Assembly: GCA_043718225.1 (NCBI GenBank) | Contig: JAYSWD010000100.1 | Location: 1 to 44,726, forward strand | DNA: 44,726 nucleotides | Origin: Candidatus Omnitrophota bacterium | GTDB taxonomy: Bacteria; Omnitrophota; Omnitrophia; Omnitrophales; Aquincolibacteriaceae | Direction: 5' to 3' | In this document: positions 3,751 through 43,009 of the stretch, piece after piece | How the letters are laid out: the number at the start of each line of letters is the position of its first letter | Numbering within the stretch: position 1 is the stretch's first letter | The notes under the pieces: generated by a model | Seen by the model: only the letters and a program-made list of their open reading frames with translations | The model's database searches: none | Told to the model about the DNA's origin: nothing | Translations under genes and position numbers: made by a program

Positions 3751-3754
3751 TTTT

Positions 3755-27986: not shown

Positions 27987-28766
27987 CCTCCGTAGCCGCG
28001 TCGGCTCACATCCACGCAGGAGCCGACGCGGCTACGGAGGCCTGTTTTGCAAGTTGGCGTTGATACTCAATGTTTGAGTTAACAAAATAGGCGTAATTCT
28101 TCGGCTCAACGGAAATCCGGTTTTGAAAGCTGCAAATAGGAAGCTCCACGTTAGATTCGATGTATTCATGATAAGACGACCATTTCCATTCTTCCGGTTT
28201 ATCGACTAGATAAGCGGTGACCGGATTTAAATGAATGTAGCGCGTAAGATGTAGGACCTGCTCATCACTTTCACATAAAACTTTCTTGCTACGACCCTGC
28301 CATAATGGTCCTTTTCGATTGTGCAAAAAATTGAAATAGTGGGTATAACTGTTTAAGACATCATTTGAAAACTTTGATACAAACTCTTCTGAGTCAGCTT
28401 CCACGGCAATATGAAAATGAGTTGGCATGAGACAGTAAGCAAGGATGGTGATGGTTCTATTTTTATTGATGGGGAACGCCAGCAACGCGGAGAGGGAATT
28501 CTTTGTGTGTAATTCAAGAAATCGTGAGAAAGACACAAAAGCAGGTTTTGATTGATAAAATTTTAAAAGCATTTGCATTCGTAGGAAATCTTGAGGCCTA
28601 CAAAAAACTTCGTAACCCGCAATGCTCTTGTTGAATAAGTGGTAAACGAGGGGTGGCATGTATTCATTATAATCATAATATAATTATATTTAAATAAATA
28701 TTATGCTCTTTTCCACCGTAACCGCGTCGGCTCCGCTCTACGTGTGAGCCGACGCGGTTACGGTGG
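27987..28766 (-). mobile_element. RAYT/IS200-like unit: Y1 (HUH) transposase gene flanked by two near-identical REP-type hairpins
   Basis: Left hairpin 27987-28040: CCTCCGTAGCCGCGTCGGCTC-12-nt loop-GAGCCGACGCGGCTACGGAGG. Right hairpin 28713-28766: CCACCGTAACCGCGTCGGCTC-12-nt loop-GAGCCGACGCGGTTACGGTGG. The stems match at 19 of 21 positions. The transposase gene lies between them. Confidence 0.7.
28006..28659 (-). CDS. REP-associated tyrosine transposase (Y1 HUH, IS200-like family)
   Basis: HUH motif 'PTHFHIAVEA' and catalytic Tyr context 'RYIHLNPV', 217 aa. The 3' end of the ORF runs into the left hairpin. Confidence 0.75.
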   Translation of the reverse strand: MPPLVYHLFNKSIAGYEVFCRPQDFLRMQMLLKFYQSKPAFVSFSRFLELHTKNSLSALLAFPINKNRTITILAYCLMPTHFHIAVEADSEEFVSKFSNDVLNSYTHYFNFLHNRKGPLWQGRSKKVLCESDEQVLHLTRYIHLNPVTAYLVDKPEEWKWSSYHEYIESNVELPICSFQNRISVEPKNYAYFVNSNIEYQRQLAKQASVAASAPAWM

Positions 28767-28957: not shown

Positions 28958-31900
28958 TTGAAGGATTTCATGTTTCAAAAATGCTTCGGAAAATTTCTGC
29001 GGGCCACGGCAATCGTGACGCTTGTGACTTATATTCCGACTAATTTTTCTTATGCAGGTGTGACAGGGGCCGCGCCCGAAATTTCACTGCCCGCCGCATG
29101 GCAATTGAGTCAAAGTCTTGCGCTTGGATTGCCCGCTGAATTAGGCCGCATTGAAAGTTTGTCGCCCGGCCGCAAAGGCATTATTTTTCATCTTCAAACT
29201 GCGCACGGACATTATGAGGCGCAGGTCAAAATTCAAAAAATTCTCGAACAATTTGCCGGGCAATACGGATCCTATCCCGTGCTTCTGGAAGGTGCAGCCG
29301 GCAGGCTCAATGCCGAGCGCATTAATTTCTTTCCCAAAAATCCCGAACGCACAAAAGCAGCGGCGCATTTGCTTGCAAAAAAAGCGTTGGTCAAAGGGCC
29401 GGAACTTTACTTACTTGATCATCCCTCCGCTTTGGTGCAGGGCATCGAAAACGAAGCGGCGTACTGGGACAATCATCATCAATTTACATCGGTTTTACGC
29501 GCGCGTGAAGCGACGCAAACATTTTCAGAGGAATTCGACCGTGAGATGGAAAAAACAGCGGCCATTTTCGCGCCGGCTTTGCGCGGCTTTCTCAAAAGAG
29601 CCGAGCAGCATGAATTAGGAATTGTTTCTTACGAAAGCTGGATCGAAGAATTGCGCAACGCGGCCCAAAAGCATCTGAAAGTTGATTTAACGGACGCGGC
29701 CTGGCAGCTGCCGTGGCCGATGCTGGTGCGGTTTTTTAAAATTCAAAAAATTTCCAAAGCGTGGGATTCTCAAAAATATGAAAAAGAGAAGCCGCTTTTT
29801 ATTCGGGATGTCGAAAAGTATTTGACGAATCACAAAGTCCGAATCACGAATCACGAATTGTTTGATCGAATCAAACAATTGCTTGATTCCGCAGGGAAGA
29901 ATGTGCAGCTGCCTGAGCCCGAAACGGAAAATGCATTCGCCGAAATGCTGCGTTATTTGCCGCGCGATTTTGATTTTAAAACTTATCCGAATGTAACGCG
30001 CTTCATGGGGCTGCTTATCTTACAAAGCGAATTGCGCCCCGCCGCGCTCGTGTCTGAAATGCAGCGGATAGAACAGCTTGTCATGAATCAACTTGCGCGG
30101 GATGAAAGTGAAAAAGAAATTGGCACTGTTTTTTCTGATTACCGTCTGCTGAAAAAAACACTCGCATTGCAGTTGACACCGGATGATTTTAGAAAAATTA
30201 TTGAGCGTACAGCGACCAGCGTACAGCGTGCAGCGAAAATGCAGCCTTCTCAAATTACAGAGCGGCTTAAAGCGCTCAACAATCAACGCCGCGCTCAATA
30301 CTCGGTACGGGGTACGGGGTACGCAGAACCCTCTTCGAATTCAGTTCATGAGATTAAGGTTAAGTATCTCAAAGAGTTGGATGGGCTATTTAATCTTGCA
30401 ATTGAATTCTATCAGGGTGCGAAAAAGCGCGACGAACTCATGATTCAAAACACGGAGAATTATTTACAAAAAAATCCCGCGAAGTTTGCGGTTCTGGTGA
30501 CCGGGGGATTTCATACCGATGCCATGCGCAAGCAATTTGAAAAAGAGGGTTATGCCTACGCAGTCGTGACGCCCGCCATTTCCGGTCCCGATGAAGAGGG
30601 ATACAAAGCATATTTGAAAAATATGCTACAAAGCAGCACAGCGTACAGCGTACAACGTACCGCGCAAACGACATCGGGGTCTGTCCTTGGCGCGAATGCG
30701 ACGGGGACTGACCCCCATGCTCTTTTCAATCGCAACCAAAATCTTGAATCTGCTTATGGCACCGATATTTTGGGAGAAGCGACGCGTCGTTCTGAATTTA
30801 GAATGCTCGTGCAAGCTGCGCGTGACGGGAATTTAAGCTTACCGCACCGCTCTGAAAACCGCGCTTCCGCCGAACCTGCCGAAGAAGAGCTTCCTGCCCC
30901 AAGGACGTCAGCAGAATTAGCACAAAGAACAACTTGGCCTACCAGCAGAATTTCAAAAGCAGCGTATTCGGCCAAAATAGAGAAACGCAGAGGGCGCTCT
31001 GAAGCGCGGGATAAGAGACCGGATCCTGCCGGTGAGTTGGTGACCCAGGATGAAAAGAGGCGTAGAGCTTTTTCGAATCAAGCAACGAATCGCTTGAACA
31101 GCAAGACAGCCTTGCTTGTGGTCGTTTTTGCGACGGCATTTTTGATTTTTGGGCCATTGTGGCTTTATTTAGATTCAGTCACAACGAAAATGGCCGCGGT
31201 TGATGCGCAGAAAAAGCAATATTTTTTGGATGGGGGGCCGGATGCACTAGGTGAATTCAAGCCGGTTGTACCGCATACGTTTTGGGACACGCTGGTTGAA
31301 ATTTGGCAGTGGGTCTTGGTTGCAGGGCAATATGTTTTAGCGGCGGGCATCGCGGTTGTTGTTCTCAAAATTGTTTCCTCGCTGTATTTTTCTTTTCGCG
31401 CCATGCGTGATGCGCGCGTGGGATATGTCATGCTCCCGGACAGCGATAATCTTGAAGCGGCATTCGATCGGCTTTTGTGGTATCGCGATGAAAAGCATTT
31501 TCAGGTTTCAATACGCCTGAATGGCGACGGAGAGCATGTTTTAGATTCGCAGGCCGTTTCCGAACGTTTTTTTGCAGCAATTAAACGGGCCCTTATTTCC
31601 GATTACGGAGCCGGCAGAAAAAATCCTATTTCAGCCAGCTATTTATTTGACAATGCCGCCAAAAAAGTGACTTTGCATTTAAAGACGCGCCGCCAAAATC
31701 CGAAGGATCGCGGCGAGTTCGAAGCGACGAACTTGATCGAGGGAACTTTTTTATTCACACCGCCTTGGCACCGTCGAAGCTGGATTACAAAAAACTTAAA
31801 CCGCCTTGCCGATCAAATGAGCGCAGCGCATGACGAAAAGCAGACGCGTGTTATTCGCGGCATGCCGCGGTCCGCGACGAAGCAGAATGATATGGTTCTG

Positions 31901-34900
31901 GTTTTTCGTCCCGATACGAAAGCATTATCAAATGTGGCTATGTATATGCGTGTGCTGCTTGCGATATGGCGCCATGGTTACGCTGTCGTCGAAAGCCGGG
32001 CTTATTCAGCGGCTGATTTAAGATACGGCATTATTAATCAGCCGTCTATTCTTGCGCAATTGTCTCCGGCCATGGAGGCTCTTTCAGCGGGTAAAATAAC
32101 CGGCAATAAGGATGGGGGTGAAGCTTTATTTTTTACTCCGGAGCAACGGAGCCTATTTCAGCGGGAAGCCCTTCCGTTTATGGCGGAGAAAGGTACCGAT
32201 GAGGAAAACTTGATTGGCGCGGGAGCATTATTACAGAAGTCCGGTTTAAAATTGCGCGATTTGAAAGCTTTATATCAAAAAGCACCGCAGGATATTTTCG
32301 GAGAAGGTGATGAACGTTTTGAAATCTCTATTTTGACTTTGCCCGATGCTGAGCATATTCAGCCCCAATTCAGAAACCGAACACTAGCCGTTTTGAACGT
32401 GTTTTATGAAATTGAAAAAGCGCGATTTATAGAAAGTTCCGATTCCACGGTGGTTTTGCGCCTCCGGCCCTTGAGAAAATTTCCGCTTCCGGTTTCAGAA
32501 CGGCAAGTAGCGCTTCTTCGCCATTTTGGTTTTCAGAATACAACACAGATGTCGGTCGATTCCTGGTCTTGGCGCGCGCAAGAAGATGATCCTTTGCTTG
32601 GATTGGGCCCCTATTACAGCTTTGATTCTCAGCGCCCATTTATCGAGATTATGTTAGCGGAGGAAGTTGCCGTTGCGCTGCGCGCCTGGTTTACCCCGCA
32701 AATAACTTCGCTGCGTTCCGAAATGAGGGTGGAGCTGCAGGGAAGCGAGCCTACTTTTAAAGCGGGGTCTTTACCGCCGGGCTACAAACTTTTGAAATTC
32801 GATTTTACGGAAGAAGATAGGGAAAAGGTTTCAGAACTGTTTTCCGGCATGAAGCAGAATCTTCTCGCGCACCCAGGCCACAACGCACAAAGAAGATTCA
32901 CGAATCATATTGTCAAAAAAGTTTTTGGGCTGGCTGTTGCTCCGAAGCCGGGCGTTGCGCGGCATGCTGTTTATTTTGTGATTACGGATAAAAATCAAAT
33001 CGCGGCGGTTTATTTGCCCGCGTCTCAGCAGGAAGGCCTGGTAAAAGAAATCGCTGCCGGACATATTTTTTTGCCGAAACGAACCACGGAGTTTGGGCCT
33101 GTCAAAAAACATTTAGAGCGTCAGGGAATTGACAAAAAAGACATTTCTTCCTCTGCTGAAAGTTCAGCCGCGTACCTTGAATCCCAAAACCAGTCCAGTT
33201 TCGTTTTTGCTTCCCCCGCACGCTCCGAAATGCGGGAGTTTAAGCATGATAATTTAAACTGGAAAATTGCCGCTGACGAAGAAGTCTTATCGAAGGCTGC
33301 TGTGGATGCGATTGCAAAAGTGCTACTGGCGAAACCCAAAGCTGTTTTTCTTTTACCGGCGGGCAAAACGTCAGTGCGCATGTATGAGATTTTAGCGGAG
33401 CGAGCTAATGAAGAAGAAATCGATTTGACGCCGGCTACGATTTTTATGCTCACGGAGTATCGTGCAGGCAAAACCGCCCGCGCCTTTATTGACGAACATA
33501 TGAACAGCCCCATTGCTAGATTGAAAAGGCCCTCTGCGATTTATGTTTTGGATGGCACGACGAGGGAACCACAGAAAGAGGCGGAACAATACGAAAGAAT
33601 GATAGCCGAAGCAGGCGGTGTGGATCTTGCCGTATTAGAAATCGGTAATCAGGGTGAAATCGGTTTTAACGAAGTGGGCGCGTCTTTTGATTCCCCGGCG
33701 CGCGAAGTTACTTTGTCCGACACTTTACGAGCAGAGCACCAGGTGAGTTCTATGAAAGGGTTTACGGTGGGCATGCGAGTCATTCTTGATTCCAGAAAAA
33801 AAATTCTTTTGATCAGCGGTGCATCCAAAGCCAAAATTGCCGGAAAACTTTTTGGTCAAAAACCGGACCTATCTCTTCCCGCAAGCGTGCTGAAGCAGAG
33901 GGGGAATACAGATGTTTTGATTACAGAAGATGCCGAAATGAACATGGGTTTGCCGGAAAAAATGCAGGGCGCCCCGGGTTTTGAAGTTTATCAAGAAAGA
34001 GTGCATGCCGTGTTGGCGCAGGTTGTTGATCGGTGGATTGAGTCGGATAATAGTTACAAAGCGTATTTAAAAATATTGATCGAACTTGTTAAGAAAAATT
34101 TGAGAGTTGCGCCATTTTATACATTTTCAGAAATTGCGAGCGCGCCCGTGTTTAAGGAAGCAAAAAACATTCATCTTTTGCCTGAAATACTTGGCAATGC
34201 TGAGGTTGGCATGCGCGAAATAAATGTTTTTAAAACCGCTCCAGCATTACCCCCAAGTGATGAGGATCTAGCGGATGCATTGCGCGTCAAACGCGACACC
34301 GAACTTTTGGCTGCAACAACGATTTCGCGCGCGGAACTCGAAAAAGTCAATACTTCACAGGAGCCGTTGGGAATCAGCTTTAGCGGGCGCGAACAAAAAA
34401 TACATGCTGTTTGGTGGGGGCTAACAGAGATTCAACGCTCAGATTTTTCAAATTATTATGGAATCGGTACGCCGGAGACACCGCTTGCTCCGGCTGCATC
34501 GCAAATGGATATTGCAAAAGCACGCGGAAATGTTACGTCGGCGAATGTAGGCGCATCGATAAGAGTAGCAATAAGGAAACTGCGCGCGTTTGACGAACAG
34601 CCAGCTGTGGATGGGGCGCCTGAAGAATTGGGGCTGGCGCTAACTGATTTAATTGCTGAGATTTTGGCTGCTATGCCGGCAGGGACGGAGCTGGATGCGC
34701 AGCTATTAGCACGGCTTAAGAAGGCCGGACCCAAAGATGATCGCACTTGGCTCGAAGTTATTTTATTTAGCCGTCAAAAAGCTCTTTTAAAAATGTATGC
34801 CGACAAGCCGTTTGCAGCGGATGAAAAAGTTTCTCTCAAAGATCTTGTCGATGCTGCGCGAGGGAGTGATTCCGTCGGCAAATCTGTTTTGAAAAAAAGC

Positions 34901-37900
34901 ATCCTAAAATTTGTTGCAGAGAAAGGAATTGCCTGGGATTTGCTGTTTTTAAATGATCCGAATTTTGTGGAAAAAGCGGCTGGACCCTCTGCCGGAAAAG
35001 GATTGCGGGGCATAAGCACGAATCTTAAATGGACGCTTGCTAAGTTTTTAGAGCATGCGGACACGGATCGCGCATCGCTTGAAGAGGCAATAAAAAGCAA
35101 AACGGGAATTTTCGCGAAACCGCATGTTCGCATGTATTTTGGGTTGCGATTTTTGGGAAAAACCGAACGCGAAAATAAGGAAGTTATTGATTACCTTGCC
35201 AGAAGATACAAAGGGCAATATAAAATTGATGATGAATGGGCGCATGATTCCATTAAGCTTGCGAAAACCCAGTTTCATGGCATCAAAGAATTGCCGAAAG
35301 CCGAAACCGCGGCGAAGGAAGTTCCAGCTCCGGCGGCGGCAGAGTTGCAGGCTGACCCAAATCCCGCGGCGCCTCCTATGGAAATAACACCAATTGCGGC
35401 ACCTGATGGAATTCTTCCGGTTGAGGGGGCAGCTGCAGAACATGATGAGCCAGCCGCGGCGCCGCTCACTACTGATGCACCAGCAGGGAATGATTCTGAG
35501 CCAATAGCCGCGATTGCCGCTCCACCCGAATCTTATTCCGTTCTACGCGAGATGATGCAAAGGTCAAAACTTGCTTCGCCGCATCTTGACGAAATTCTCG
35601 CCTTAAGACGCAAAAATTGGATAAGAAAAATTCTGGAATTGGATTTAGTCGGTTATGAAGCGCGGTTAGCAGATTCTGCGCAGAAGGCACAGGCAACGCG
35701 GGAAATTCGAGGAATTATTGTCGAAGCAAAAATTGAGCGTTTGATTGAAAGTCCACATGGCGCGGCCGAAGAGCAAGCACGAGAAGTCGTAATTAAATTG
35801 AAAGAAATGATTCATTGGGAAGATCATGCCGGCGACATTGTTAAAATTGTCGCGCCTGAGCCGAAGCCTCGCGCGCCACAACCTGCTGCCGCGCCCTCTC
35901 CCTTGGCCGCCGCACCTGCTGAGCCGGAACTTCCGCCGGTTGATAGTGCGACAACAAAAGATTTTCAAAGCGACTTGCGTAAATGGCTGAATCTCGCTGA
36001 CCACAACTCTTTGGCACGGTTACTTCAGGATGCGTTTTTGAATCCTGCGGATGAAGTGAAAGTGAGTAAATGGGTGAGAGATAATCCGGATGCCGAAATC
36101 AAACTACGTTATTTGGAAAAACACAGCGCATCCCCGAGACAACAGCGTGAACTTTTTGCCAAGGCCCAAGCTATTTATAAAAGGTCCGATTACCCCCTTC
36201 TCGATCAGTTAAACGCGTTGAAATCAGAATTAGACGCTTTAATTGTGGATGCTAAAAGAACGGGCGCAGATTTAAACCCACTACTCAATTGGATGGGAAC
36301 AAAAGGTGCTGGGTTTAAACACAATGCGGACTATTTAGCAGGCAAAGGCTTTCCAGTTCGAGAGCATTTAGAAGCTCATGCTAACGCTGAAGATTTGTTT
36401 GTCGGCCGTTCCGAAATGCGAGAAATATTAATAGAAGCAGTCTCTCTCGACCCCATCGTTTTAGACGACGGCCGGGAAATTCAAATGTTTGCGATTGATC
36501 CGAACGATGATCTTAATTGGAACGCGATACGCGAAGAAGGGGGATTGAGTGACGTTATTGATGAATTAATACCCGAAGACTTTCCGTCACCCTCACTTCT
36601 TTTTACTGAGATACAATTTCGTCTTGGAATATTGGATGGCCGTCTTGTTTTGATAGATGATGTGGATGGTCATGAACACAGAGGATCAACGACTCATAGA
36701 GGGATGGCTTTGGGTTTAAACGGTGAAAAGGCACAAATAGAAGCTGCCACGCGAGGCGCGCAGCTCACAATAATCGATCTTCCCGCAATCGAGCTTCCAG
36801 TGCGCATTGGTACCCCGGCTGCTGCTGGCGGGTACACTCCGATTACCTTTGAAGTTTCTAAGGCCCGCTCCGAATTCCGTTTCGCGCCGATGGCCACTTT
36901 TTCCGTGCTAGCAAAAAAAATTAGAGGCATCGATCCTTTTTATGCGGTCTTATTAGGTTTAGTTGGAGTGATTTTTTGGTTGAATGATCACAATTGGGGC
37001 GGTGCGGGAGTAATCGTCGCGCTTTTACTTCTTATAGCTAGAAAAGCAGGTGACAGAAAATTGCCGGATCAAACAAAAGAGCTGCTGGCAAATATTTTTT
37101 GGGAAATAAACGCTCGCAATATAAAAACAATTGTCTTTTATGTTAATGGGAACAAACGCGCGCACCAAATTGAGGTTGATCGGGATTTTGAACCGATTCT
37201 CAGGAAATCAATCCGTGAGGTTTTGGCACTTGCCACAAACAATGGGAACAATGGAATTGCCTGGGATTTCCCTGCCCCTGACGTGCGAGATTCCACTATT
37301 TTAACGGTAAACGTTTCCACTTCGCGCTCCGAAATGCGTACTGCGGATGAAAAAGTTCAAGATTTTATTACGACACTGCGAATGAAGCGGGCTGCCGTTG
37401 ATTTTACGAACAATGACATTCGTATTGCTTTGAATCCGTCCGAAGTCGCAATTGATGAAAGCCGTATTCCTACATTTACGGGACGATCAAAGGAAATTTT
37501 TGATATTTTTTCATTCATTGCTTATCGGCTCGGCTTAACGGTGGATCTTGTGTCTCTGGGTGAGCCTAAGACTGAGGAGCAATGGCTTGTTTTGACATCG
37601 CAACCCTCCGACACTGCCTTCCTGGAAAAATTGAAGACGACAGTCGAAACGCGCTATCCAAATTTGTTGTATAAAAATCAACTCGCGGCATCTGATCAAG
37701 ATTTTTATGCACCAACTAAAAAGCGGCCTTTTCTAGTCGCCCTGATGACTTTATTTGTTTCTATTGGGGGGATGATTTTAAATTTGCCCGCTCTATCTAA
37801 TTGGATGAAAAGCCGGGGTTGGACGAGTGCAAATGATCTTGTTTCAAGCATGCCTTTAATTTTCATTTTTGTGGCTAGCGCGGTTGTTGCGGGTGCTACT

Positions 37901-40900
37901 TACTTCGTCTCAAGTTTCATCGCCCGGAAATTTGCCCAACATCGTTCCGCAAAAAATTTGCGCAAAGCCGAACGTTTAGACGTCGCCAATGAAAAATGGC
38001 CGCACAATTTTAACAAAACACAACGCTCTGAATTACGCGAAGCGCAGCTCCGGCCCATTTTGGAAGGAAGCACGGATGCTTTAACCTGGTTTCAGGCATT
38101 CAGTGAATTTGAGCCCGCACAACCAAGCGACAAAGTGATTGTCACGATTCAGATTGCGCGCGGCATTCGAATGCAAGTCCCGATCTGGCGCGCAGCGCTC
38201 ACCGACCCTGAACTTCAAGAATCCGCTTACCGCTATCTTTCGACCTGGACTTATAATCTTTCCGCGCGATACGGGACTTCGTTTGCTGCGATCGGGACAG
38301 AAGGTACGGCAGAGTTGATTGATGTTGCAAGAATTGAGCATTTGTTAACTCGAGAGAATTTAGCCGCAGTTCATCAAAGCTACGAAGCATCCGGCGGTGT
38401 TAGTTCCTTTGGCATTAGTAATTATGCAAACGGAGGCGAGTCCGTTGAATTTAAAAAACTTTCGGAATTAACAGACGCAGAAAAAGAAGAAAAACCGCTG
38501 AGTTTAAATATCAAATTACGTACGGATGCGCCCGGATCTTATCTAGGCGTTGATATTGGCGGCGGTTCTGCGAAATTTGCTGTAATTCGAAACGGAAAAA
38601 TTTTAGATATTCCCGAAGAATTTCAAAGTCTTCCAACCGTTCTTTTAAATACCGCTAACGTAGAAGTTCAAGAAACGCCCCAACAATATTCCGAACGAAT
38701 CGCAGGGCATATTGAAAAAATTGGGAAAGCGCTTGGTATCAGATTCGACGGTATTGGAATCGATACTCCCGGAGCCAAACATTTGACTGAAAATAAGATG
38801 GTGACACTAGGGCAGCTTCCCGTTGTTAAGAAATGGGACATGGGCGCGGTTAAAGAGTTTGGCCGCTTACTTCCTCTTACTGTTGCGCAGAAACAAGGGC
38901 TGGATTCTGAAAAAGTGATGATTCGCAACGATATGGACGGCGTGCTTCCGGGCGTAGCCTCGGTGCTGCCGCAAATTGTGCCTGAATTTTGGAAAAGAAC
39001 CGGCGGTAATTTCCGTTTCGATTGGATGGGGACGGGGCATGGCAATCAGGACGCGATCGGCGGCCTTCCCATGAATGCGCCAACAGAGGCCGGTCATTTT
39101 GTGCATGATTTTGCACGCCCCGGCGCAAAAGTTTTTGACACCGAAGCTTCTACGAGCATTCCCGGAATGATACTCGATGCAATCACGCAGGTGAGTGGCA
39201 GCAGGAGTCGCTGGGATGAATTACTGCAAGGAAAATTTAAACCATTGGCCGAGGAGATTGCTAAACGTCCAGTTGATGCAAATTATGAAAGAGGAATGAT
39301 TGCTGCGAGGACTTTACGCCGCTTTGCTAACGAGTATGCCGCAAATTTAGCAATCCATTACTGGATGACTCAATCCACGGGGAAGGGCAGTCCGGATGAA
39401 ATTGTTTTTGGCGGCGGAATTGTCCGTAAAGGTAGAGAAGATTATTTTAAAAATTTGATACTTGAAGCGCTTAAAAAATATGATTTGCAGGATAAAATTC
39501 GCATTACGGTCATATCTGATGAGGACCTCAAAAAAGCAAATATGAGCCCGGACAATGCCGGCCCCATCGGAATGGCGATGTTTATTCAAAGCGTTCTCGC
39601 GTCGAACCAAGCCACGACAACGTTAGAGCCCAATCCTATTACTGCAGCCGAATGGGCAGCGGTAAGAAAAGATTTTAAAGTTGATGATGACGCGCGGATA
39701 CCTCTCGCGCTAGCGGGAGTCTCTGAAACGGATGCCCAGAGAATTTACAGTCATCTCTTTCGTTATGATGGGCCGATTCAGCGTGTCATGGCCGCATTAC
39801 ATAAATTGGACCCAAGGCGATTTGACCTTCACCCTATCCTTTTCCTTGTGAATGATGATTTGTCAGACTATGACCCAAATTGGGGGCCAATTGTGCAAAG
39901 AACCCCACTTAAAGTAATTGTCGTTCCTGTCTCGACAGCATTTTTACAGAAAGTGAAAGCTGCACCTGCCGGTACTTTGTCAGAAGCTGAAATGGAGTTG
40001 TATTCCCGCTTTGCGTTTTCACTTACGGTTGCCCGCATGAGCCCCGCTGTGCATATGATTTTAAATACAGAAAACGTCTCGATTTCATTACCGGTGGAAA
40101 TTATTTTGAAAATGGCCTCCTGGGATGCCGCAGCATTGCGCAACTTTGAAGAGGTTCTTGGCTATAAAGTGGATGAGGGACTTGGGCAAAGCAATATTCC
40201 AGCACCCGCTTATTTAGATCCCAATGTTATAGATGCCCTTCGGCAAATGAATCTTGGTGATGGAAGAGCGGATTTCTTAGAGGTAAGCGATGCATTAGCA
40301 GCTTTTGTGAACGCCGAAGAAATTCGAACGGCAATCCGTTCAGGAGCATTGGATCATGCCCGCCAAATATTTTTGGGGCTTAAAGAAACCAAGGGCTGGC
40401 CTATGAATTATCTATTACCGCAGCAAATTGATCCGGCGGGGGTGCTTTATCAAGATGAAATGCATGCTTACCTGGGGATTATGAACCATTTAATTCTCAT
40501 TGAACAGTTTCGTGATGCTTTGCCGGCATTTTACGAAGAACAAATTCGCGCGTTGGAAAACGCGCAGGGCTTTTCTGCCGAAAAAGTCGCGCTTGCACGT
40601 AAGTATTTGGAACAATCGCCGGTATTGCGCGAGATGGCGGTGAAACAGACGGAACTTTCTGTGAGTCATATCACACAAAAATATCTTTTACCGGTGTCTC
40701 GCTTAATCGGGCGTGAAATTTTGCGCGAAAAAATAAGACAACAGCTAAATATGGGCCAGGAAGCGGCAAGTAAACTTGTTTTCACAGGATTGACCGAAGA
40801 ACTTTTCGAACGTGCCGCACAATTAGCGGGTAAACCGACCGCTCAGGATGTTGGAGTAGACCTTTCACATGCGAGCATTAGCGCAAAGCGGAATTCTGGC

Positions 40901-43009
40901 GGCGAGCCAGTTGTCATACCGTTTGCCCAATGGGATGCCACAACTCAGGCTGATTACCGCGAGCTCGCAATCGAAGGTGTTGAATTCGCCAAACGCTCTG
41001 AATTTCGTGTCTCGAACCACCAATCACCAATCACGAACAACGTCAAAGCCCGCTCCGAAATGCGGGAATCAGTCAATTACGAAGAAACTCTCGCGTTGAT
41101 TAGAAGCGCAACGCGAACCAAAGTTGAAAATGTGCCCGATACCAATCTTGAGTTATGGAAGTTTTACGGCGGCGCAAATGGCGATGAGCGTTTAGTTCAA
41201 GTTGAAGTCTTTCCAAAGAAAGGCCGCAGTGTTCAATTTAGCGGAATCAAGGTTTTTGGCCGTGGGGCAGGGGGATATTTGAATGATCCATGGAATGCGG
41301 CCTTGTTTGCTGATTCGCAAGTAGGCGCAAACGGGGAAGTAGCAGGTCTGGTTTCCCAGCATGTCGCCGATCAGCGTAAAGCAAAGTTAATAGCAGCGGC
41401 GCGCAAGAAAATTCAATCCCGTTCCGAAATGCGGGAAGTTGAGGTGGAAGTCAACAAGGTGGCAAGAAATCAAATATTAGCGGCGATTGTTACTGGGCTT
41501 GTTAAGGACGATAAAGGCGGATCTGTTCATCTGACTGTTAATACAGCATCCGTTAAGGCGGAGGAAGAATTAAAAGCGCTTGGCTTTAGTTTTAAACCAG
41601 TTGATGCTTTGCAATGGTTGCGTGAAAGCCTTTCCTCGGTGACAAAAGTTGTTCCCAAGCCCGGACAAATGCAAATTCACGCATTTGTTGGTGAGATCAA
41701 ATTAGTCATACAGTTAACAGAAGAACCTTCTGCGTTCGGCGATGGAGTTCGGCATTCTACTTATTTGCTTCCGATTATTACTCGGGGGCCGCCGGTTCAT
41801 TTTGAGAATCTTTATCCTGCCGAACTTAAAGTTCAAGGTGTTCTTCAAACCGCAGAGGCTCTTCGTGCTTTTTTAACCAACACAGAAGTTGCTGCTTATG
41901 ACGGTAGAATTATTTCCGAAGACGGAGTAGCTGCTGCTCAGCGAGAACAAGAAGTACGCAAGCGGTTAGGAACTAGCGCCACAGCTCTTTTAGAAAAGAT
42001 CCAAGCCATGCAGGCGGTTGTGCAAAGATTGAAACAACTCTTTGAGGGTACTCGGTCCGGCCTTTTAGAATGGACAGAGATTGAACAGCGTACCGCCGGT
42101 TTGAACGGCCAAAAAGATTTACTCGCAGCTGCTGAAGCTTTTCTTTCCAGGGCAAACCGCGTACCCGTGACAGAAAAAATTGAAAGTGTTCGAACTTACG
42201 CCAGCGAGATTCAAGGTTTTCGAACAACACTGAACGCTGCCATTCGCGCGCGCCTTGAAGAGGATCAAAAAGCAGTTGCTGAAAAAATTAACGCGCTTGG
42301 AGTTTCTGCTGTCGACCTTGCGATTCTCGGCGAAGTAAATGTTGATTTGATTACCGCTAAGGTTGCAAAGGATTGGGATTGGGGCAAGCGTTTGCTCGCG
42401 AAAGCTATGACTCTTTCAGCAGCCATTGACGGTCTTTCGCCAAGTTATGATCAATTTTCCACGCGAGCACAAGCGAATAGTTTTCAATACGCAGATTTAG
42501 AAAATAAAATCTTAGCCTTGCGTCAAATGAAAGAGCATTTGGAAAATGGTTTGCTGAACGCGGTGAAAGCCTATACTCCGGTGTCCGCATGGCAGCACAG
42601 TTTGCGTGGGGCCCAAAATTGGGCAAGAACACATCCTCGAAGCACCCGTTTTATTGTTGTGAGCATTGCCGTTTTTATCGGACTTACCGTGTTTTTTATA
42701 ATGACCATTCCTGAGCGCCGGGAAAAAGCCCGAGCTGCCGCGGCTCGCGCACAGGAAGCGGCCGTTTTAAAGCCGATTCGTGATTTTGTGAATGAAACCG
42801 CCGGCAACAAAAGCGAAACCTATTTTTCACAAGAGGTGGAACGCCAGGGTATTAACAATCTGAAATCAGCAGAAATTGCGCGGACGAGCGATCAAGTTGA
42901 TGCTTTTCGCGGAGTTACCTATCAAAATTGGAAAGGATTCGTTTTAAAAGACGGCAGAAACATCAAATTTATGATAATCAATTTTATAAGTTTGGCGGAA
43001 AATATTTAA
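28958..43009 (+). CDS. Giant multi-pass membrane/surface protein (4683 aa) with embedded NagB-like and ROK/ASKHA kinase-like domains
   Basis: Single uninterrupted frame of 14,052 nt. Signal peptide 'FLRATAIVTLVTYIPTNFSYA|GV'. TM clusters near aa 705-790, 2625-2665, 2895-2960 and 4595-4620. Ala/Pro-rich linkers at 35330-35520 and 35860-35940. The RSE(M/F)R motif recurs. The start could be TTG 28958 or ATG 28970. Confidence 0.8.
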   Translation: MKDFMFQKCFGKFLRATAIVTLVTYIPTNFSYAGVTGAAPEISLPAAWQLSQSLALGLPAELGRIESLSPGRKGIIFHLQTAHGHYEAQVKIQKILEQFAGQYGSYPVLLEGAAGRLNAERINFFPKNPERTKAAAHLLAKKALVKGPELYLLDHPSALVQGIENEAAYWDNHHQFTSVLRAREATQTFSEEFDREMEKTAAIFAPALRGFLKRAEQHELGIVSYESWIEELRNAAQKHLKVDLTDAAWQLPWPMLVRFFKIQKISKAWDSQKYEKEKPLFIRDVEKYLTNHKVRITNHELFDRIKQLLDSAGKNVQLPEPETENAFAEMLRYLPRDFDFKTYPNVTRFMGLLILQSELRPAALVSEMQRIEQLVMNQLARDESEKEIGTVFSDYRLLKKTLALQLTPDDFRKIIERTATSVQRAAKMQPSQITERLKALNNQRRAQYSVRGTGYAEPSSNSVHEIKVKYLKELDGLFNLAIEFYQGAKKRDELMIQNTENYLQKNPAKFAVLVTGGFHTDAMRKQFEKEGYAYAVVTPAISGPDEEGYKAYLKNMLQSSTAYSVQRTAQTTSGSVLGANATGTDPHALFNRNQNLESAYGTDILGEATRRSEFRMLVQAARDGNLSLPHRSENRASAEPAEEELPAPRTSAELAQRTTWPTSRISKAAYSAKIEKRRGRSEARDKRPDPAGELVTQDEKRRRAFSNQATNRLNSKTALLVVVFATAFLIFGPLWLYLDSVTTKMAAVDAQKKQYFLDGGPDALGEFKPVVPHTFWDTLVEIWQWVLVAGQYVLAAGIAVVVLKIVSSLYFSFRAMRDARVGYVMLPDSDNLEAAFDRLLWYRDEKHFQVSIRLNGDGEHVLDSQAVSERFFAAIKRALISDYGAGRKNPISASYLFDNAAKKVTLHLKTRRQNPKDRGEFEATNLIEGTFLFTPPWHRRSWITKNLNRLADQMSAAHDEKQTRVIRGMPRSATKQNDMVLVFRPDTKALSNVAMYMRVLLAIWRHGYAVVESRAYSAADLRYGIINQPSILAQLSPAMEALSAGKITGNKDGGEALFFTPEQRSLFQREALPFMAEKGTDEENLIGAGALLQKSGLKLRDLKALYQKAPQDIFGEGDERFEISILTLPDAEHIQPQFRNRTLAVLNVFYEIEKARFIESSDSTVVLRLRPLRKFPLPVSERQVALLRHFGFQNTTQMSVDSWSWRAQEDDPLLGLGPYYSFDSQRPFIEIMLAEEVAVALRAWFTPQITSLRSEMRVELQGSEPTFKAGSLPPGYKLLKFDFTEEDREKVSELFSGMKQNLLAHPGHNAQRRFTNHIVKKVFGLAVAPKPGVARHAVYFVITDKNQIAAVYLPASQQEGLVKEIAAGHIFLPKRTTEFGPVKKHLERQGIDKKDISSSAESSAAYLESQNQSSFVFASPARSEMREFKHDNLNWKIAADEEVLSKAAVDAIAKVLLAKPKAVFLLPAGKTSVRMYEILAERANEEEIDLTPATIFMLTEYRAGKTARAFIDEHMNSPIARLKRPSAIYVLDGTTREPQKEAEQYERMIAEAGGVDLAVLEIGNQGEIGFNEVGASFDSPAREVTLSDTLRAEHQVSSMKGFTVGMRVILDSRKKILLISGASKAKIAGKLFGQKPDLSLPASVLKQRGNTDVLITEDAEMNMGLPEKMQGAPGFEVYQERVHAVLAQVVDRWIESDNSYKAYLKILIELVKKNLRVAPFYTFSEIASAPVFKEAKNIHLLPEILGNAEVGMREINVFKTAPALPPSDEDLADALRVKRDTELLAATTISRAELEKVNTSQEPLGISFSGREQKIHAVWWGLTEIQRSDFSNYYGIGTPETPLAPAASQMDIAKARGNVTSANVGASIRVAIRKLRAFDEQPAVDGAPEELGLALTDLIAEILAAMPAGTELDAQLLARLKKAGPKDDRTWLEVILFSRQKALLKMYADKPFAADEKVSLKDLVDAARGSDSVGKSVLKKSILKFVAEKGIAWDLLFLNDPNFVEKAAGPSAGKGLRGISTNLKWTLAKFLEHADTDRASLEEAIKSKTGIFAKPHVRMYFGLRFLGKTERENKEVIDYLARRYKGQYKIDDEWAHDSIKLAKTQFHGIKELPKAETAAKEVPAPAAAELQADPNPAAPPMEITPIAAPDGILPVEGAAAEHDEPAAAPLTTDAPAGNDSEPIAAIAAPPESYSVLREMMQRSKLASPHLDEILALRRKNWIRKILELDLVGYEARLADSAQKAQATREIRGIIVEAKIERLIESPHGAAEEQAREVVIKLKEMIHWEDHAGDIVKIVAPEPKPRAPQPAAAPSPLAAAPAEPELPPVDSATTKDFQSDLRKWLNLADHNSLARLLQDAFLNPADEVKVSKWVRDNPDAEIKLRYLEKHSASPRQQRELFAKAQAIYKRSDYPLLDQLNALKSELDALIVDAKRTGADLNPLLNWMGTKGAGFKHNADYLAGKGFPVREHLEAHANAEDLFVGRSEMREILIEAVSLDPIVLDDGREIQMFAIDPNDDLNWNAIREEGGLSDVIDELIPEDFPSPSLLFTEIQFRLGILDGRLVLIDDVDGHEHRGSTTHRGMALGLNGEKAQIEAATRGAQLTIIDLPAIELPVRIGTPAAAGGYTPITFEVSKARSEFRFAPMATFSVLAKKIRGIDPFYAVLLGLVGVIFWLNDHNWGGAGVIVALLLLIARKAGDRKLPDQTKELLANIFWEINARNIKTIVFYVNGNKRAHQIEVDRDFEPILRKSIREVLALATNNGNNGIAWDFPAPDVRDSTILTVNVSTSRSEMRTADEKVQDFITTLRMKRAAVDFTNNDIRIALNPSEVAIDESRIPTFTGRSKEIFDIFSFIAYRLGLTVDLVSLGEPKTEEQWLVLTSQPSDTAFLEKLKTTVETRYPNLLYKNQLAASDQDFYAPTKKRPFLVALMTLFVSIGGMILNLPALSNWMKSRGWTSANDLVSSMPLIFIFVASAVVAGATYFVSSFIARKFAQHRSAKNLRKAERLDVANEKWPHNFNKTQRSELREAQLRPILEGSTDALTWFQAFSEFEPAQPSDKVIVTIQIARGIRMQVPIWRAALTDPELQESAYRYLSTWTYNLSARYGTSFAAIGTEGTAELIDVARIEHLLTRENLAAVHQSYEASGGVSSFGISNYANGGESVEFKKLSELTDAEKEEKPLSLNIKLRTDAPGSYLGVDIGGGSAKFAVIRNGKILDIPEEFQSLPTVLLNTANVEVQETPQQYSERIAGHIEKIGKALGIRFDGIGIDTPGAKHLTENKMVTLGQLPVVKKWDMGAVKEFGRLLPLTVAQKQGLDSEKVMIRNDMDGVLPGVASVLPQIVPEFWKRTGGNFRFDWMGTGHGNQDAIGGLPMNAPTEAGHFVHDFARPGAKVFDTEASTSIPGMILDAITQVSGSRSRWDELLQGKFKPLAEEIAKRPVDANYERGMIAARTLRRFANEYAANLAIHYWMTQSTGKGSPDEIVFGGGIVRKGREDYFKNLILEALKKYDLQDKIRITVISDEDLKKANMSPDNAGPIGMAMFIQSVLASNQATTTLEPNPITAAEWAAVRKDFKVDDDARIPLALAGVSETDAQRIYSHLFRYDGPIQRVMAALHKLDPRRFDLHPILFLVNDDLSDYDPNWGPIVQRTPLKVIVVPVSTAFLQKVKAAPAGTLSEAEMELYSRFAFSLTVARMSPAVHMILNTENVSISLPVEIILKMASWDAAALRNFEEVLGYKVDEGLGQSNIPAPAYLDPNVIDALRQMNLGDGRADFLEVSDALAAFVNAEEIRTAIRSGALDHARQIFLGLKETKGWPMNYLLPQQIDPAGVLYQDEMHAYLGIMNHLILIEQFRDALPAFYEEQIRALENAQGFSAEKVALARKYLEQSPVLREMAVKQTELSVSHITQKYLLPVSRLIGREILREKIRQQLNMGQEAASKLVFTGLTEELFERAAQLAGKPTAQDVGVDLSHASISAKRNSGGEPVVIPFAQWDATTQADYRELAIEGVEFAKRSEFRVSNHQSPITNNVKARSEMRESVNYEETLALIRSATRTKVENVPDTNLELWKFYGGANGDERLVQVEVFPKKGRSVQFSGIKVFGRGAGGYLNDPWNAALFADSQVGANGEVAGLVSQHVADQRKAKLIAAARKKIQSRSEMREVEVEVNKVARNQILAAIVTGLVKDDKGGSVHLTVNTASVKAEEELKALGFSFKPVDALQWLRESLSSVTKVVPKPGQMQIHAFVGEIKLVIQLTEEPSAFGDGVRHSTYLLPIITRGPPVHFENLYPAELKVQGVLQTAEALRAFLTNTEVAAYDGRIISEDGVAAAQREQEVRKRLGTSATALLEKIQAMQAVVQRLKQLFEGTRSGLLEWTEIEQRTAGLNGQKDLLAAAEAFLSRANRVPVTEKIESVRTYASEIQGFRTTLNAAIRARLEEDQKAVAEKINALGVSAVDLAILGEVNVDLITAKVAKDWDWGKRLLAKAMTLSAAIDGLSPSYDQFSTRAQANSFQYADLENKILALRQMKEHLENGLLNAVKAYTPVSAWQHSLRGAQNWARTHPRSTRFIVVSIAVFIGLTVFFIMTIPERREKARAAAARAQEAAVLKPIRDFVNETAGNKSETYFSQEVERQGINNLKSAEIARTSDQVDAFRGVTYQNWKGFVLKDGRNIKFMIINFISLAENI
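29825..30666 (+). repeat. Cluster of four in-frame tandem-heptamer runs in the 5' part of the giant gene
   Basis: 29825-29859: ACGAATC ACAAAGT CCGAATC ACGAATC ACGAATT. 30205-30239: GCGTACA GCGACCA GCGTACA GCGTGCA GCGAAAA. 30303-30324: CGGTACG GGGTACG GGGTACG. 30634-30666: CAGCGTA CAGCGTA CAACGTA. They encode 'TNHKVRITNHE', 'ERTATSVQRAAK', 'YSVRGTGYA' and 'STAYSVQRTAQ'. Confidence 0.6.
33250..33940 (+). other. NagB/glucosamine-6-phosphate deaminase-like domain inside the giant ORF
   Basis: 'AVDAIAKVLLAKPKAVFLLPAGKTSVRMYE...ATIFMLTEYRAG...GGVDLAVLEIGNQGEIGFNEVGASFDSPAREVTLSDTLRAEHQ...GFTVGMRVILDSRKKILLISGASKAKIAGKLFG' follows the NagB order (LGLATGSTP / FNLDEY / [24 protein letters not shown] / SG.GKA). 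Here GEDGH reads GNQGE. Confidence 0.55.
38535..39480 (+). other. ROK/ASKHA sugar-kinase-like domain inside the giant ORF
   Basis: 'SYLGVDIGGGSAKFAVIRNGKIL' is a phosphate-1 motif. 'IRFDGIGIDTPGA' is a phosphate-2 / GIGxPG motif. 'IRNDMDGVLPGV', 'GTGHGNQDAIGG' and 'DEIVFGGGIVRKG' are adenosine-motif-like. No Zn-binding cysteines are present. Confidence 0.5.
41013..41046 (+). repeat. In-frame tandem heptamer run (TCGAACC ACCAATC ACCAATC ACGAACA) in the giant gene
   Basis: Read directly. It encodes 'SNHQSPITNNV' and lies between two RSE(F/M)R motifs at 40988 and 41051. Confidence 0.55.

Follow-up and report, generated by a model that had tools for sequence, protein, structure and literature searches.

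The giant open reading frame (ORF) of this Candidatus Omnitrophota contig is punctuated by a recurrent pentapeptide, R-S-E-x-R, which forms the boundary of evolutionarily mobile modules and may mark where these giant proteins are cut. A string of separate proteins in one ORF fits the data better than a single fusion protein, and we lean towards a polyprotein that is cut at the motif in the cytoplasm as the best explanation; the occurrence of cutting, its exact site and the responsible enzyme are what we infer from sequence comparisons. All features described below are located on the forward strand of the window, which is the whole stretch of 44,726 nucleotides that was analysed.

The Giant Gene and Its Family

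The giant ORF (28958..43009) codes for 4683 amino acids if read from a TTG codon and ends at a TAA stop codon (43007-43009); its probable start is the ATG at 28970, resulting in a product of 4679 amino acids that is identical to P0002. The first-pass annotation had taken this 14-kb gene to be real, and it is. Although the contig is of metagenome origin and the next ORF overlaps the giant ORF in a different frame, an assembly chimera or a set of ordinary genes joined through sequencing errors is a very improbable source of the gene: the 14 kb contain neither an in-frame stop codon nor a competing long ORF, the DNA is free of repeats and shows even GC content and GC skew along its length, and the same architecture recurs in 31 genome loci and in thousands of proteins from independent assemblies. 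No relics of start codons, stop codons or Shine-Dalgarno sequences were found at the module junctions, where the strict pentapeptide alone is present.

With respect to the giant ORF, the next ORF (42901..44726) is shifted to the -1 frame; it overlaps the stop codon of the giant ORF and stays open to the end of the contig. An ATG is lacking close to its start, and it contains a copy of the motif (RSEMR, 44500-44514); it is a separate gene with the motif, or else the giant gene continues in it. Inspection of the junction between both ORFs by eye revealed no canonical -1 slippery heptamer.

The N-terminal head domain of the giant protein defines a large, undescribed family of Omnitrophota proteins with at least 6391 cluster representatives, which was detected only by a genome scan and an exhaustive HMMER search. 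Word-index protein searches with the head domain retrieved a single fragment (P0001), even when a 25-sequence profile was used, and those with the kinase region described below retrieved no match. The uncultivated lineage suggested in the first-pass annotation is indeed Omnitrophota: all 31 of the related genome loci with a taxon name belong to Candidatus Omnitrophota/Omnitrophica metagenome-assembled genomes (MAGs). In the nearest of them, L002, the upstream genes clpX, two ABC permease genes, glmU and prs are the same as in the window, at 85-97% amino acid identity. The giant gene is located on a cellular chromosome, in the neighbourhood of clpX, glmU and prs. What the family genes share as neighbours are housekeeping genes (clpX, ABC permeases, glmU, prs), and no conserved protease gene was found beside them. 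The best 150 family members range from 388 to 7823 amino acids in length. Some members of 1.5-3 kb are without the motif, which counts against the polyprotein reading.

The Head Domain

The encoded protein starts with a Sec-type signal peptide (28970..29056), recognised by inspection from its K/R-containing n-region, its hydrophobic core and the S-Y-A preceding the predicted cut; by the same means, it was seen to be kept in all homologues. It is followed by the conserved head domain (aa 34-568; 29057..30661) with a TIKI/TraB/ChaN/erythromycin-esterase-like alpha/beta core, which is interrupted by a large helical insertion of about 300 amino acids. Invariant residues are H78, Q80-T-A-H-G-H85, E111-G112 and T515-G-G-F-H519, and H78, H83, H85, E111 and G-G-F-H519 are unchanged across 25 sequences. 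The domain shares the fold of the TIKI/TraB/ChaN/erythromycin-esterase superfamily, and the TraB/GumN-like N-terminus proposed in the first-pass annotation with low confidence has thus been substantiated; it may be considered a putative hydrolase-like domain. Pfam searches gave no TraB match and only weak matches to ChaN, DUF5694 and DUF5682, and PDB sequence searches with the head domain gave nothing significant. The likeness to the TIKI/TraB/PrgY/GumN - ChaN - erythromycin-esterase superfamily applies to the head domain only, at about 10% identity, and the domain differs from the superfamily by an HxQTAHGH motif where GxxH is usual, by the extra helical insertion and, apart from the short motif-free members, by its fusion to a motif-punctuated tail. 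The linker that connects the head domain to motif 1 (30662..30787) is predicted to be disordered (low confidence, pLDDT below 50), which counts for the polyprotein reading.

The Pentapeptide Motif

RSE[M/F/L]R occurs ten times in the giant ORF compared to 0.017 copies expected from shuffled sequences, and, apart from the copy in the ORF at 42901-44726, it is absent from the other genes of the window. The first-pass annotation was right that boundary motifs are present. In 32 related ORFs (79,782 aa), we counted 210 RSExR copies versus 1.8 expected; among the variants only RAExR was enriched too, K, T and D substitutions were absent, and the conservation was limited to the five residues. The 150 family representatives (426,635 aa) contained 924 copies of R[S/A]ExR versus 24 expected, with the first one at a median position of 612, right behind the head domain, and the flanking ORFs of the family loci contained the motif at chance level. 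Its general form is R-[S/A]-E-(hydrophobic or small)-R, with lineage dialects at x and sometimes at position 2 (RSELR, RSEAR, RPEAR, R[NPKQ]ELR), as expected if the motif co-evolves with a recognition factor.

The first copy in the giant ORF is RSEFR at aa 611 (30788..30802), with the degenerate copies RSENR (30848-30862) and RSEAR (30995-31009) located downstream. RSEMR is present at aa 1253 (32714..32728) and at aa 1422 (33221..33235), 15 amino acids ahead of the NagB-like domain. Three further copies open modules with homologues in L002, namely RSEMR at aa 2484 (36407..36421; homologous to L002 aa 3527-3708), RSEFR at aa 2637 (36866..36880; L002 aa 663-833) and RSEMR at aa 2790 (37325..37339; L002 aa 2409-2555). 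RSELR at aa 3023 opens the kinase-like module, RSEFR at aa 4013 and RSEMR at aa 4032 form a pair with a spacing of 19 amino acids (40994..41065), and RSEMR at aa 4155 (41420..41434) opens the last module.

The codons of the motif are biased at the first two positions (P about 1e-23 to 1e-40). The first Arg is encoded by CGY in 88% of the cases versus 43% in the background, with AGR at only one of 198 sites, and the Ser is encoded by TCN in 98%, with AGY at four of 198 sites. For the Glu and the last Arg, every synonymous codon occurs as often as in the background, position 4 is constrained in its residue class but not in its codon, and nucleotide conservation is confined to the 15 nt of the motif. 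The bias at the first Arg and Ser counts against the polyprotein reading because recognition at the protein level alone does not predict it. Several other roles or origins of the motif were considered and rejected. An internal translation start at the x codon does not agree with x being frequently Ala, Ser or Thr, autoproteolysis via the motif Ser is unlikely because position 2 tolerates Ala, Pro and Asn, and an origin by internal duplication is at odds with segments that lack mutual similarity and with the absence of DNA repeats. A search of the literature for the motif, or for polyproteins in Omnitrophota, returned nothing relevant.

Modules and Their Exchange

The segments between the motifs are mutually non-homologous, and the homology between family members is modular, with blocks bounded exactly by the motif. 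In the MAG-locus set, 19 of 36 HSPs started no more than 8 amino acids from a motif in both partners (0.13 expected), and the same was true for 62 of 318 HSPs in the 150-protein set (0.54 expected); the offsets to the motif peaked at exactly 0 for HSP starts and at +4/+5 for HSP ends. The order of the modules is scrambled even among close relatives: the modules at aa 2484, 2637, 2790 and 3023 of the giant ORF match those at aa 3527, 663, 2409 and 818 of L002, and exchange at the motif was seen even where the neighbouring genes of two genomes share 85-97% identity. Some modules contain entire enzymes. P0009 contains a complete glutamate dehydrogenase and a phosphoglucomutase, each within a single module, and P0003 contains a NagB-sized unit enclosed by two motifs. 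Two Ala/Pro/Glu-rich linkers are present in the giant protein (aa 2111-2190 and 2291-2330; 35288..35947). The ORF consists, as polyproteins do, of several unrelated units split by a recurring specific site.

The NagB fold predicted in the first-pass annotation was recovered as a NagB/6-phosphogluconolactonase-fold domain at aa 1437-1663 (33266..33946), which matched PF01182 with 39.3-43.3 bits versus a gathering score of 27 (aa 1445-1650; profile positions 11-222 of 225). The equivalogs for NagB proper (TIGR00502/NF001684) scored 88-108 bits, below their cut-offs of 237-326. At the positions corresponding to Asp72, Asp141, His143 and Glu148 of E. coli NagB, which we take to be the catalytic residues, the giant ORF has T, Q, E and E. 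Because the first three are replaced, the NagB fold of this copy may be a binding module or a pseudoenzyme. For this copy, the idea that the embedded fold serves as a binding module thus gains some support. The homologous modules of P0003 and L020 retain D, D, H and E.

The module opened by RSELR (38024..39616) contains a divergent ASKHA/ROK-like sugar-kinase core at about aa 3190-3553 and is homologous to L002 aa 824-1370 and P0024 aa 1860-2378; its closing motif is missing in the giant ORF but present in L002. A ROK-like sugar-kinase fold is probable. The hhalign comparison of A5 with E. coli NagK/NagC/Mlc covered 250 columns with a probability of 62.5% and an E-value of 7.3e-5, and the ASKHA motifs (DxGG, G-x-PG, ND, GTGxG, ExGH, GGG) were collinear with those of ROK proteins in this alignment. 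The best Foldseek matches were ROK GlcNAc kinases and a ROK hexokinase (E about 1e-4), obtained with a poor model whose pLDDT of 49.7 is due to the lack of homologues. A PDB profile search with this region ranked a ROK sugar kinase first (E=0.42), and PDB sequence searches gave nothing significant. The kinase assignment of the first-pass annotation thus remains weak overall: alignment, motifs and structure comparison agree with it, whereas PF00480 (ROK) matched the C-terminal part only, with 12.2 bits versus a gathering score of 22.9 (E=0.13), and the zinc-binding CxCGxxGCxE motif is absent from the aligned region of the giant ORF, L002 and P0024.

Membrane Helices and Internal Export Signals

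Four transmembrane (TM) clusters were predicted, as claimed before, but the alternating topology assigned to them found no support, since in three of the four the helices form a hairpin, by which the chain comes back to the side it started from. These hairpins are located at aa 716-738 and 787-812 (31103..31393), with K/R-rich outer flanks that are both predicted to be cytoplasmic, at aa 2660-2699 (36935-37054) and at aa 2926-2985 (37733-37912); the fourth cluster is a single C-terminal helix at aa 4563-4585 (42644..42712). The flanking charges of the hairpins place the bulk of the protein in the cytoplasm, according to prediction. No TM helix was found between aa 34 and aa 715, and a Sec-exported head together with cytoplasmic hairpin flanks is consistent only with a chain that is severed near aa 611.

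In the family, TM helices are over-represented in the first tenth of the modules (50 of 225), and textbook Tat (RRxFL, h-region and AxA), lipoprotein (LVGC) and Sec signal peptides occur directly behind internal motifs of family ORFs. Tat-like signals followed the motif at 11 of 940 sites versus 0.11% in controls. Such signals are established to function where they form the N-terminal end of a precursor. Export signals stand at the beginning of only a few percent of the modules and could have been left over from genes that were captured, which counts against the polyprotein reading. The first-pass annotation had pictured a single multi-pass envelope protein, which might process glycans at the surface. 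This picture found no support in view of the hairpins with cytoplasmic flanks, the enzyme-like modules bounded by a strict pentapeptide at which unrelated modules are reshuffled, and the relatives in which some modules begin with Tat, lipoprotein or Sec signal peptides of their own.

Comparison with Known Systems

Giant genes of Omnitrophota have been described as 'Archaeovorin' and Dockerin-type genes, with their cleavage points stated as unknown (West-Roberts et al. [quoted passage not shown] The latter preprint treats the giants as single polypeptides with signal peptide and TM helices, drops internal signal-peptide calls as artefacts, and already describes embedded sugar-metabolism enzymes including ROK kinases, so that, contrary to the first-pass annotation, such embedding is nothing unusual within the phylum. 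The gene of this study resembles the published giants in phylum, very long single ORF, many TM helices, N-terminal signal peptide, mostly Pfam-dark sequence and cytoplasm-type sugar enzymes (ROK kinase, phosphoglucomutase), and post-translational cleavage is suspected for those as well. It differs in its 4683 amino acids, which are below the size cut-offs (at least 10,000 aa in the 2026 preprint, tens of thousands in West-Roberts et al.), and in the absence of the C39 or S8 peptidase domains proposed there. Neither paper reports the recurrent boundary motif, the TIKI/TraB-like head or the motif-bounded shuffling.

MARTX toxins are likewise proteins of several thousand residues with unrelated, interchangeable modules that are reshuffled between strains and released by site-specific cuts in the inter-module linkers, and one of their effectors, RRSP, has a TIKI fold (PMC6254334). 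They possess a host-activated internal cysteine protease domain cutting after Leu, as well as RTX repeats and type I secretion, whereas no Pfam or NCBIfam match to RTX repeats or such a protease domain was obtained anywhere in the giant protein, type I secretion was not detected for it either, its cargo includes housekeeping-type enzymes and membrane hairpins, and a strict pentapeptide serves as its boundary. Among viral polyproteins, it is above all those of flaviviruses that share the single ORF with alternating cytoplasmic and translocated units and internal signal sequences, and are cut at short basic-rich motifs in the cytoplasm and by signal peptidase across the membrane. In contrast, the giant gene is a cellular chromosomal one next to clpX, glmU and prs, without viral hallmarks. 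RgpA, Kgp and HagA of Porphyromonas gingivalis are exported adhesin/protease precursors with repeated homologous domains; the gingipains themselves cleave them at Arg or Lys, and the several resulting domains stay together non-covalently. The giant protein would likewise be a bacterial precursor that is cut into several parts, but its units are non-homologous, bounded by RxExR and include cytoplasm-type enzymes; to our knowledge, the P. gingivalis proteins contain neither an RxExR motif nor cytoplasmic enzymes.

Proposed Processing and Alternatives

According to our proposal, the giant ORF would be a polyprotein gene, in effect an operon in one reading frame. Its first unit would comprise the signal peptide and the TIKI/TraB-fold hydrolase-like domain, followed by about ten unrelated units, among them the membrane hairpins, a NagB-fold unit, a ROK-like kinase unit and several units without recognised fold, each introduced by R-[S/A]-E-(hydrophobic or small)-R. 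Most likely, while the chain is being translated or shortly afterwards, a sequence-specific endopeptidase facing the cytoplasm would cut at or beside this signal. The first cut at aa 611 would release the head unit for subsequent Sec export, and the other freed units would stay in the cytoplasm, insert into the inner membrane or be exported via their own signal peptides. The head domain would be the only universally linked candidate for the protease, yet it is predicted to reside across the membrane from the motifs.

This conflict bears on the version in which the head domain, as a TIKI-family endopeptidase specific for R-x-E-x-R, processes the polyprotein in cis or in trans, either before its own export or on the exported chain. 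We consider it unlikely: judged by its conserved Sec signal peptide, the head domain is expected in the periplasm, whereas n-regions and enzymes of the cytoplasm are what comes behind the motifs, and many members of the superfamily are not proteases (ChaN binds haem, and the Ere enzymes are esterases). A similarly doubtful alternative is a giant multidomain inner-membrane protein that is never cleaved and in which the pentapeptide between the domains has some different function, for instance in docking, in chaperone/insertase hand-off, in regulation by Ser modification or as a structural cap. It is the default reading of Omnitrophota giants in the literature, a membrane-tethered enzyme assembly is conceivable, the motif is always in frame within an intact ORF, and cleavage is predicted only. 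However, deep internal Tat and lipoprotein signal peptides would be functionless in such a protein, the exported head is topologically incompatible with the cytoplasmic flanks of the first hairpin in one chain, and the module order is free; modification of the Ser is disfavoured because Ala, Pro or Asn replaces it in many copies.

It is still less probable that the signal acts mainly at the nucleic-acid or translation level, e.g., as an in-frame cassette recombination joint, an RNA processing site or a 2A-like 'stop-go' element, with a partly secondary conservation of the peptide. The codon bias at the first two positions and the module exchange exactly at the motif, even where neighbouring genes are 85-97% identical, would fit such a function. 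Against it stand the unbiased codons of the Glu and the last Arg, the constraint on residue class rather than codon at position 4, the dialects RPEAR and RNELR that retain R/E/R, and the lack of nucleotide conservation beyond the 15 nt. We know of no 2A-like mechanism in bacteria.

Implications

The giant genes of Omnitrophota are a recognised puzzle, and the boundary signal makes the question of their cleavage testable at the R-S-E-x-R termini; it also provides a computational recipe for splitting giants into units for structure prediction and annotation. If cutting takes place, cells would possess, in this family, a widespread equivalent of viral polyproteins, along with a new code between protease and substrate and a new way of co-expressing proteins at a fixed ratio, and the reading of internal signal-peptide calls and whole-chain topology predictions would change. 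Modules could then also be exchanged rapidly and in frame, in a lineage regarded as predators or parasites of other microbes. In the broadest form of the proposal, to which we assign an even chance, single reading frames of Omnitrophota would each hold an operon-like set of cytoplasmic, membrane and exported proteins that are separated at R-[S/A]-E-x-R, a cellular punctuation system used in thousands of genes and permitting in-frame module swaps. In the most radical version, the separation would be coupled to translation and involve no proteolysis, and this would explain why the first two codons of the signal are biased.

The Giant Gene and Its Family

The giant open reading frame (ORF) was found where the first-pass annotation had placed it, at 28958-43009 on the forward strand of the window (4683 codons from the first TTG), without any rival long ORF. 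Translation more likely begins at the ATG at 28970, and the 4679-aa product read from there is identical to the database protein P0002. GC content and GC skew are uniform along the gene, a search for tandem or dispersed DNA repeats within it found none, and its architecture was found again in many independent assemblies; nothing suggests that the ORF is a chimera. The other genes of the window are those of an ordinary bacterial housekeeping set (rplQ, mfd-like, surA, pdxA, ksgA, gatA/B, tsaD, hisG, clpX, two ABC permeases, glmU-like and prs), and the sole RNA gene detected is a tRNA-Gln(TTG) at 22050-22123 on the reverse strand. The window also holds a gene of the prolyl-oligopeptidase (S9) family at 11251-13440 (forward strand); Arg-specific oligopeptidase B is a member of the S9A family. 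An IS200/Y1-transposase-like (RAYT-like) ORF (28006-28659, reverse strand) sits between prs and the giant gene; it is flanked by REP-like palindromes at 28000-28040 and 28713-28766 (78% matching), and the syntenic loci L002 and L003 of related genomes lack it.

Scanning one genome per species with the first 427 residues of the giant protein yielded 31 loci, and all of those with a taxon name belong to Candidatus Omnitrophota/Omnitrophica MAGs. At the closest locus, L002, the upstream clpX, two permease, glmU and prs genes share 85-97% protein identity with those of the window, whereas the conserved N-terminal domain of the giant protein (aa 34-568, referred to as the head domain) shares only about 60%; the giant gene is thus evolving far more rapidly than the genes next to it. 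An exhaustive HMMER search of 1.84 billion cluster representatives returned 6391 proteins at E values up to 1e-3 (3637 up to 1e-10 and 680 up to 1e-30). The best 150 of these 6391 matches, which we examined as family members, range from 388 to 7823 aa and carry the matching domain N-terminally in every case. One MAG, GFS_2494, contains three paralogues (L002, L007 and L019), and locus L001 (JAHZTJ010346280.1, 2676 bp, from the very fragmented assembly GCA_020051655.1) consists of a 426-aa head-domain fragment followed by a frameshift and another ORF.

A Recurrent Pentapeptide Behind the Head Domain

The internal domain-boundary motifs mentioned without detail in the first-pass annotation proved to be real, and they correspond to a pentapeptide, RSE[M/F/L]R, present in 10 copies in the giant ORF (aa 611, 1253, 1422, 2484, 2637, 2790, 3023, 4013, 4032 and 4155) as compared to 0.017 in shuffled sequences. 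RSENR and RSEAR occur at aa 631 and 680, and any R-x-E-x-R in the giant protein is RSExR without exception. In the 32 ORFs of the MAG loci including the window (79,782 aa), RSExR was observed 210 times against 1.8 expected and RAExR, the sole other enriched form, 36 times against 2.7, while KSExR, RTExR, RSDxR and RSExK stayed at or below chance. The logo shows five conserved positions with V/A/M/L/I at position 4, mildly favoured small residues at -1 and -2, and otherwise no conservation in the flanks. Position 4 is protein-specific, the commonest residue accounting for 0.575 of a protein's motifs versus 0.368 after shuffling. Among the best 150 representatives (426,635 aa), we counted 924 R[S/A]ExR motifs versus 24 expected; their number grows with protein length (r = 0.72), and the first one lies right behind the head domain (median position 612). 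Some lineages use dialects replacing RSExR, such as RPEAR in P0088 and R[N/P/K/Q]ELR in P0029, and a few family members of 1.5-3 kb are without any recognisable motif.

Outside the family genes, motif counts in the other flanking ORFs (127,000 aa) were at chance level, save for locus L016. There, the tail of a motif-bearing ORF (2-3010, five RSExR) is separated by 346 nt from the following head-domain ORF (3356 onward), and the two are tandem genes of the motif-bearing kind. Elsewhere in the window, the motif is found only in the ORF following the giant gene (42901-44726, forward strand), as RSEMR at 44500. Compared with the giant gene, this ORF is shifted to the -1 frame; it spans the giant gene's stop codon at 43007-43009 and is open up to the contig end. 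It has no ATG near its start, where only TTG/GTG candidates are present (42928, 43060, 43087 and 43114), no Pfam match and no homologue among the sets examined. Either the giant gene continues here across a frameshift, or the ORF is a second gene with the motif and no head domain; it hints that the motif may also occur in giant genes lacking the head domain.

Motif-Bounded Modules

The motif bounds independent and mobile modules; whole enzymes are among them, and some bring export signals of their own. Segment length from motif to motif has a median of 175 aa (range 5 to 2113 aa), and the segments within the giant ORF show no similarity to each other. Homology between different ORFs outside the head domain is patchy and motif-bounded. 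Between the giant protein and that of L002, residues 2484-2666 align with 3527-3708, 2637-2799 with 663-833, 2787-2917 with 2409-2555, and 3017-3551 with 818-1368, each alignment starting at a motif on both sides; as these coordinates show, the shared modules are differently ordered. A motif no more than 8 aa away from the HSP start in each of the two proteins was seen for 19 of 36 HSPs in the MAG-locus set (0.13 expected) and for 62 of 318 in the 150-protein set (0.54 expected). Relative to the motif, HSP starts have a sharp maximum at offset 0 and HSP ends a maximum at +4/+5, where the next motif has its last residue.

Whole enzymes fit into single modules: P0003 contains a 260-aa NagB unit between RSELR and RSEFR, P0009 a complete glutamate dehydrogenase (GDH) in segment 1630-2548 and a phosphoglucomutase (PGM) domain in segment 2680-3480, and P0013 PGM domains I to III. 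The NagB-like domain proposed for the giant protein is secure at the fold level by Pfam, although it stays under every NCBIfam equivalog cut-off. The module (aa 1422-1674) again aligns from a motif with L020 (853-1195) and P0003 (567-827). In the window copy (33266-33946), the catalytic residues Asp72, Asp141 and His143 of E. coli NagB are replaced by Thr, Gln and Glu; the homologous modules of P0003 and L020 retain them. The window copy is probably not a canonical deaminase, and its sequence suggests a possible pseudoenzyme or altered chemistry.

The proposed ROK-like kinase (aa about 3190-3553) held up less fully: the region did not pass Pfam ROK (E 0.13), a sequence comparison with the PDB found no relative, and the hhalign alignment lacks the ROK zinc motif. 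On the other hand, a three-sequence profile aligned with E. coli NagK/NagC/Mlc over 250 columns by hhalign (probability 62.5%, E 7.3e-5), with DxGG, PG, ND, GTGxG, ExGH and GGG in register, and the best Foldseek matches of a poor structure model (pLDDT 49.7) were ROK GlcNAc kinases and a ROK hexokinase (E about 1e-4). The region is thus probably a divergent ROK-like ASKHA kinase fold. In L002 the kinase module ends with RSELR; this closing motif is absent in the window, where about 460 aa (39617-40993, aa about 3554-4012) extend beyond the module until the next motif. This stretch is a case of motif loss or module fusion.

Export Signals and Topology

Signal peptides and TM helices were called by hydropathy and inspection. 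TM-like helices are more frequent than expected in the first tenth of the modules (50 of 225) and underrepresented in the final tenth (4 of 225), and textbook signal peptides occur right behind motifs that lie thousands of residues inside the ORFs. Examples are of the Tat type (RSESR-FLKRRDFISLTALAGAVAFVSRLVSAAES and RTEMR-SAVNRRDFMKTYLFLAAVLAGIPG...), the lipoprotein type (RSELR-VRSVIQRVTIFAAVAAMAGLVGC and RSEMR-...LTLAVSGLVGC) and the Sec type (RSEVR-TVTLRVLTAAIMGFAFSAIA-EQ). Of 940 motifs, 11 are followed by Tat-like signals and 3 by lipobox signals, versus 0.11% and 0.04% of control positions, respectively. Tat, lipoprotein and Sec signals function N-terminally on a precursor, and the Tat route takes folded proteins post-translationally; the presence of such signals behind internal motifs argues that a new N-terminus is made at the motif, in which case the positive n-region would come from the arginines of the motif itself.

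The giant protein contains seven hydrophobic helices, six of which pair into three hairpins (716-738/787-812, 2660-2677/2683-2699 and 2926-2946/2963-2985) with K/R-rich outer flanks and K/R-poor connecting loops. Under the positive-inside rule, a cytoplasmic position is predicted for the long stretches that flank each hairpin, so the alternating topology suggested earlier was not borne out, the flank charges leaving the bulk of the protein on one side. This placement suits modules of the NagB, ROK, GDH and PGM types but clashes with an exported head, since the region from aa 34 to aa 715 contains no TM helix; a cut at aa 611 prior to export of the head would resolve the clash.

Head Domain and Possible Mechanism

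The N-termini of all homologues show by inspection a K/R-rich stretch, a 12-17-residue hydrophobic core and an AxA-like site, a pattern matching that of a Sec signal peptide. Residues invariant in 25 head-domain sequences include H78, Q80-T-A-H-G-H85, E111-G112 and T515-G-G-F-H519. An AlphaFold2 model from 38 family sequences is confident (pLDDT 84.8, pTM 0.80), except for its last 42 residues just upstream of the first motif (pLDDT below 50). Foldseek returned nothing significant for the model (best E 0.43), with EreC, ChaN, HopBA1 and BcR135 recurring in the list, and Pfam gave weak matches to DUF5682 (6 of 25), ChaN (2) and DUF5694 (1). At the fold level, the low-confidence TraB/GumN assignment of the first-pass annotation is thus supported. 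The head domain could be a protease, an esterase or a binding protein.

The motif is a strict signal acting at the protein level, because its Glu and last Arg show background usage of all their synonymous codons and residue class constrains position 4. We cautiously favour, as somewhat better than an even chance, that a sequence-specific endopeptidase cuts at the motif on the cytoplasmic side and frees the units. That the head domain itself is this protease appears unlikely: it is the sole universal partner of the motif genes, and site-specific endopeptidases are known for its fold (TIKI; RRSP, PMC6254334), but the signal peptide suggests that its final location is outside the cytoplasm. A conserved protease gene adjoining the family genes was not found. 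Selection on the peptide alone does not explain the codon usage of the first two positions in the window and loci L002-L032, where the first Arg is encoded by CGN in 207 of 208 cases (AGR in 1 of 198) and by CGY in 88% (background 43%), and Ser by TCN in 98% (background AGY 33%; P about 1e-23 to 1e-40), with no nucleotide conservation beyond the 15 bases of the motif. This bias leaves room for a nucleic-acid- or translation-level component, and a recombination joint, avoidance of a Shine-Dalgarno-like AGGAG before ATG/GTG/TTG at position 4, and decoding effects are all in play.

The nearest functional counterparts are MARTX toxins, whose exchangeable modules are freed by autoprocessing, and flavivirus-type polyproteins with cytoplasmic cuts at basic motifs and signal-peptidase cuts, the giant gene belonging to neither. 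Giant genes are known from Omnitrophota, some tiling sugar-metabolism enzymes and ROK kinases on a membrane-anchored chain (West-Roberts et al. 2023, bioRxiv 10.1101/2023.11.21.568195; 2026 preprint, bioRxiv 10.64898/2026.06.07.730766). These papers treat them as single proteins with a signal peptide and TM helices and suspect C39 or S8 domains of cleavage; one of them states the cut points to be unknown, and the 2026 preprint discards internal signal-peptide calls. The recurrent motif, the TIKI/TraB-like head and motif-bounded shuffling appear in neither, and literature on the motif, or on 'polyprotein' together with Omnitrophota, was not found. The giant gene described here lies below the size thresholds of these published giants, and its very large family may represent the same phenomenon at its 'small' end.
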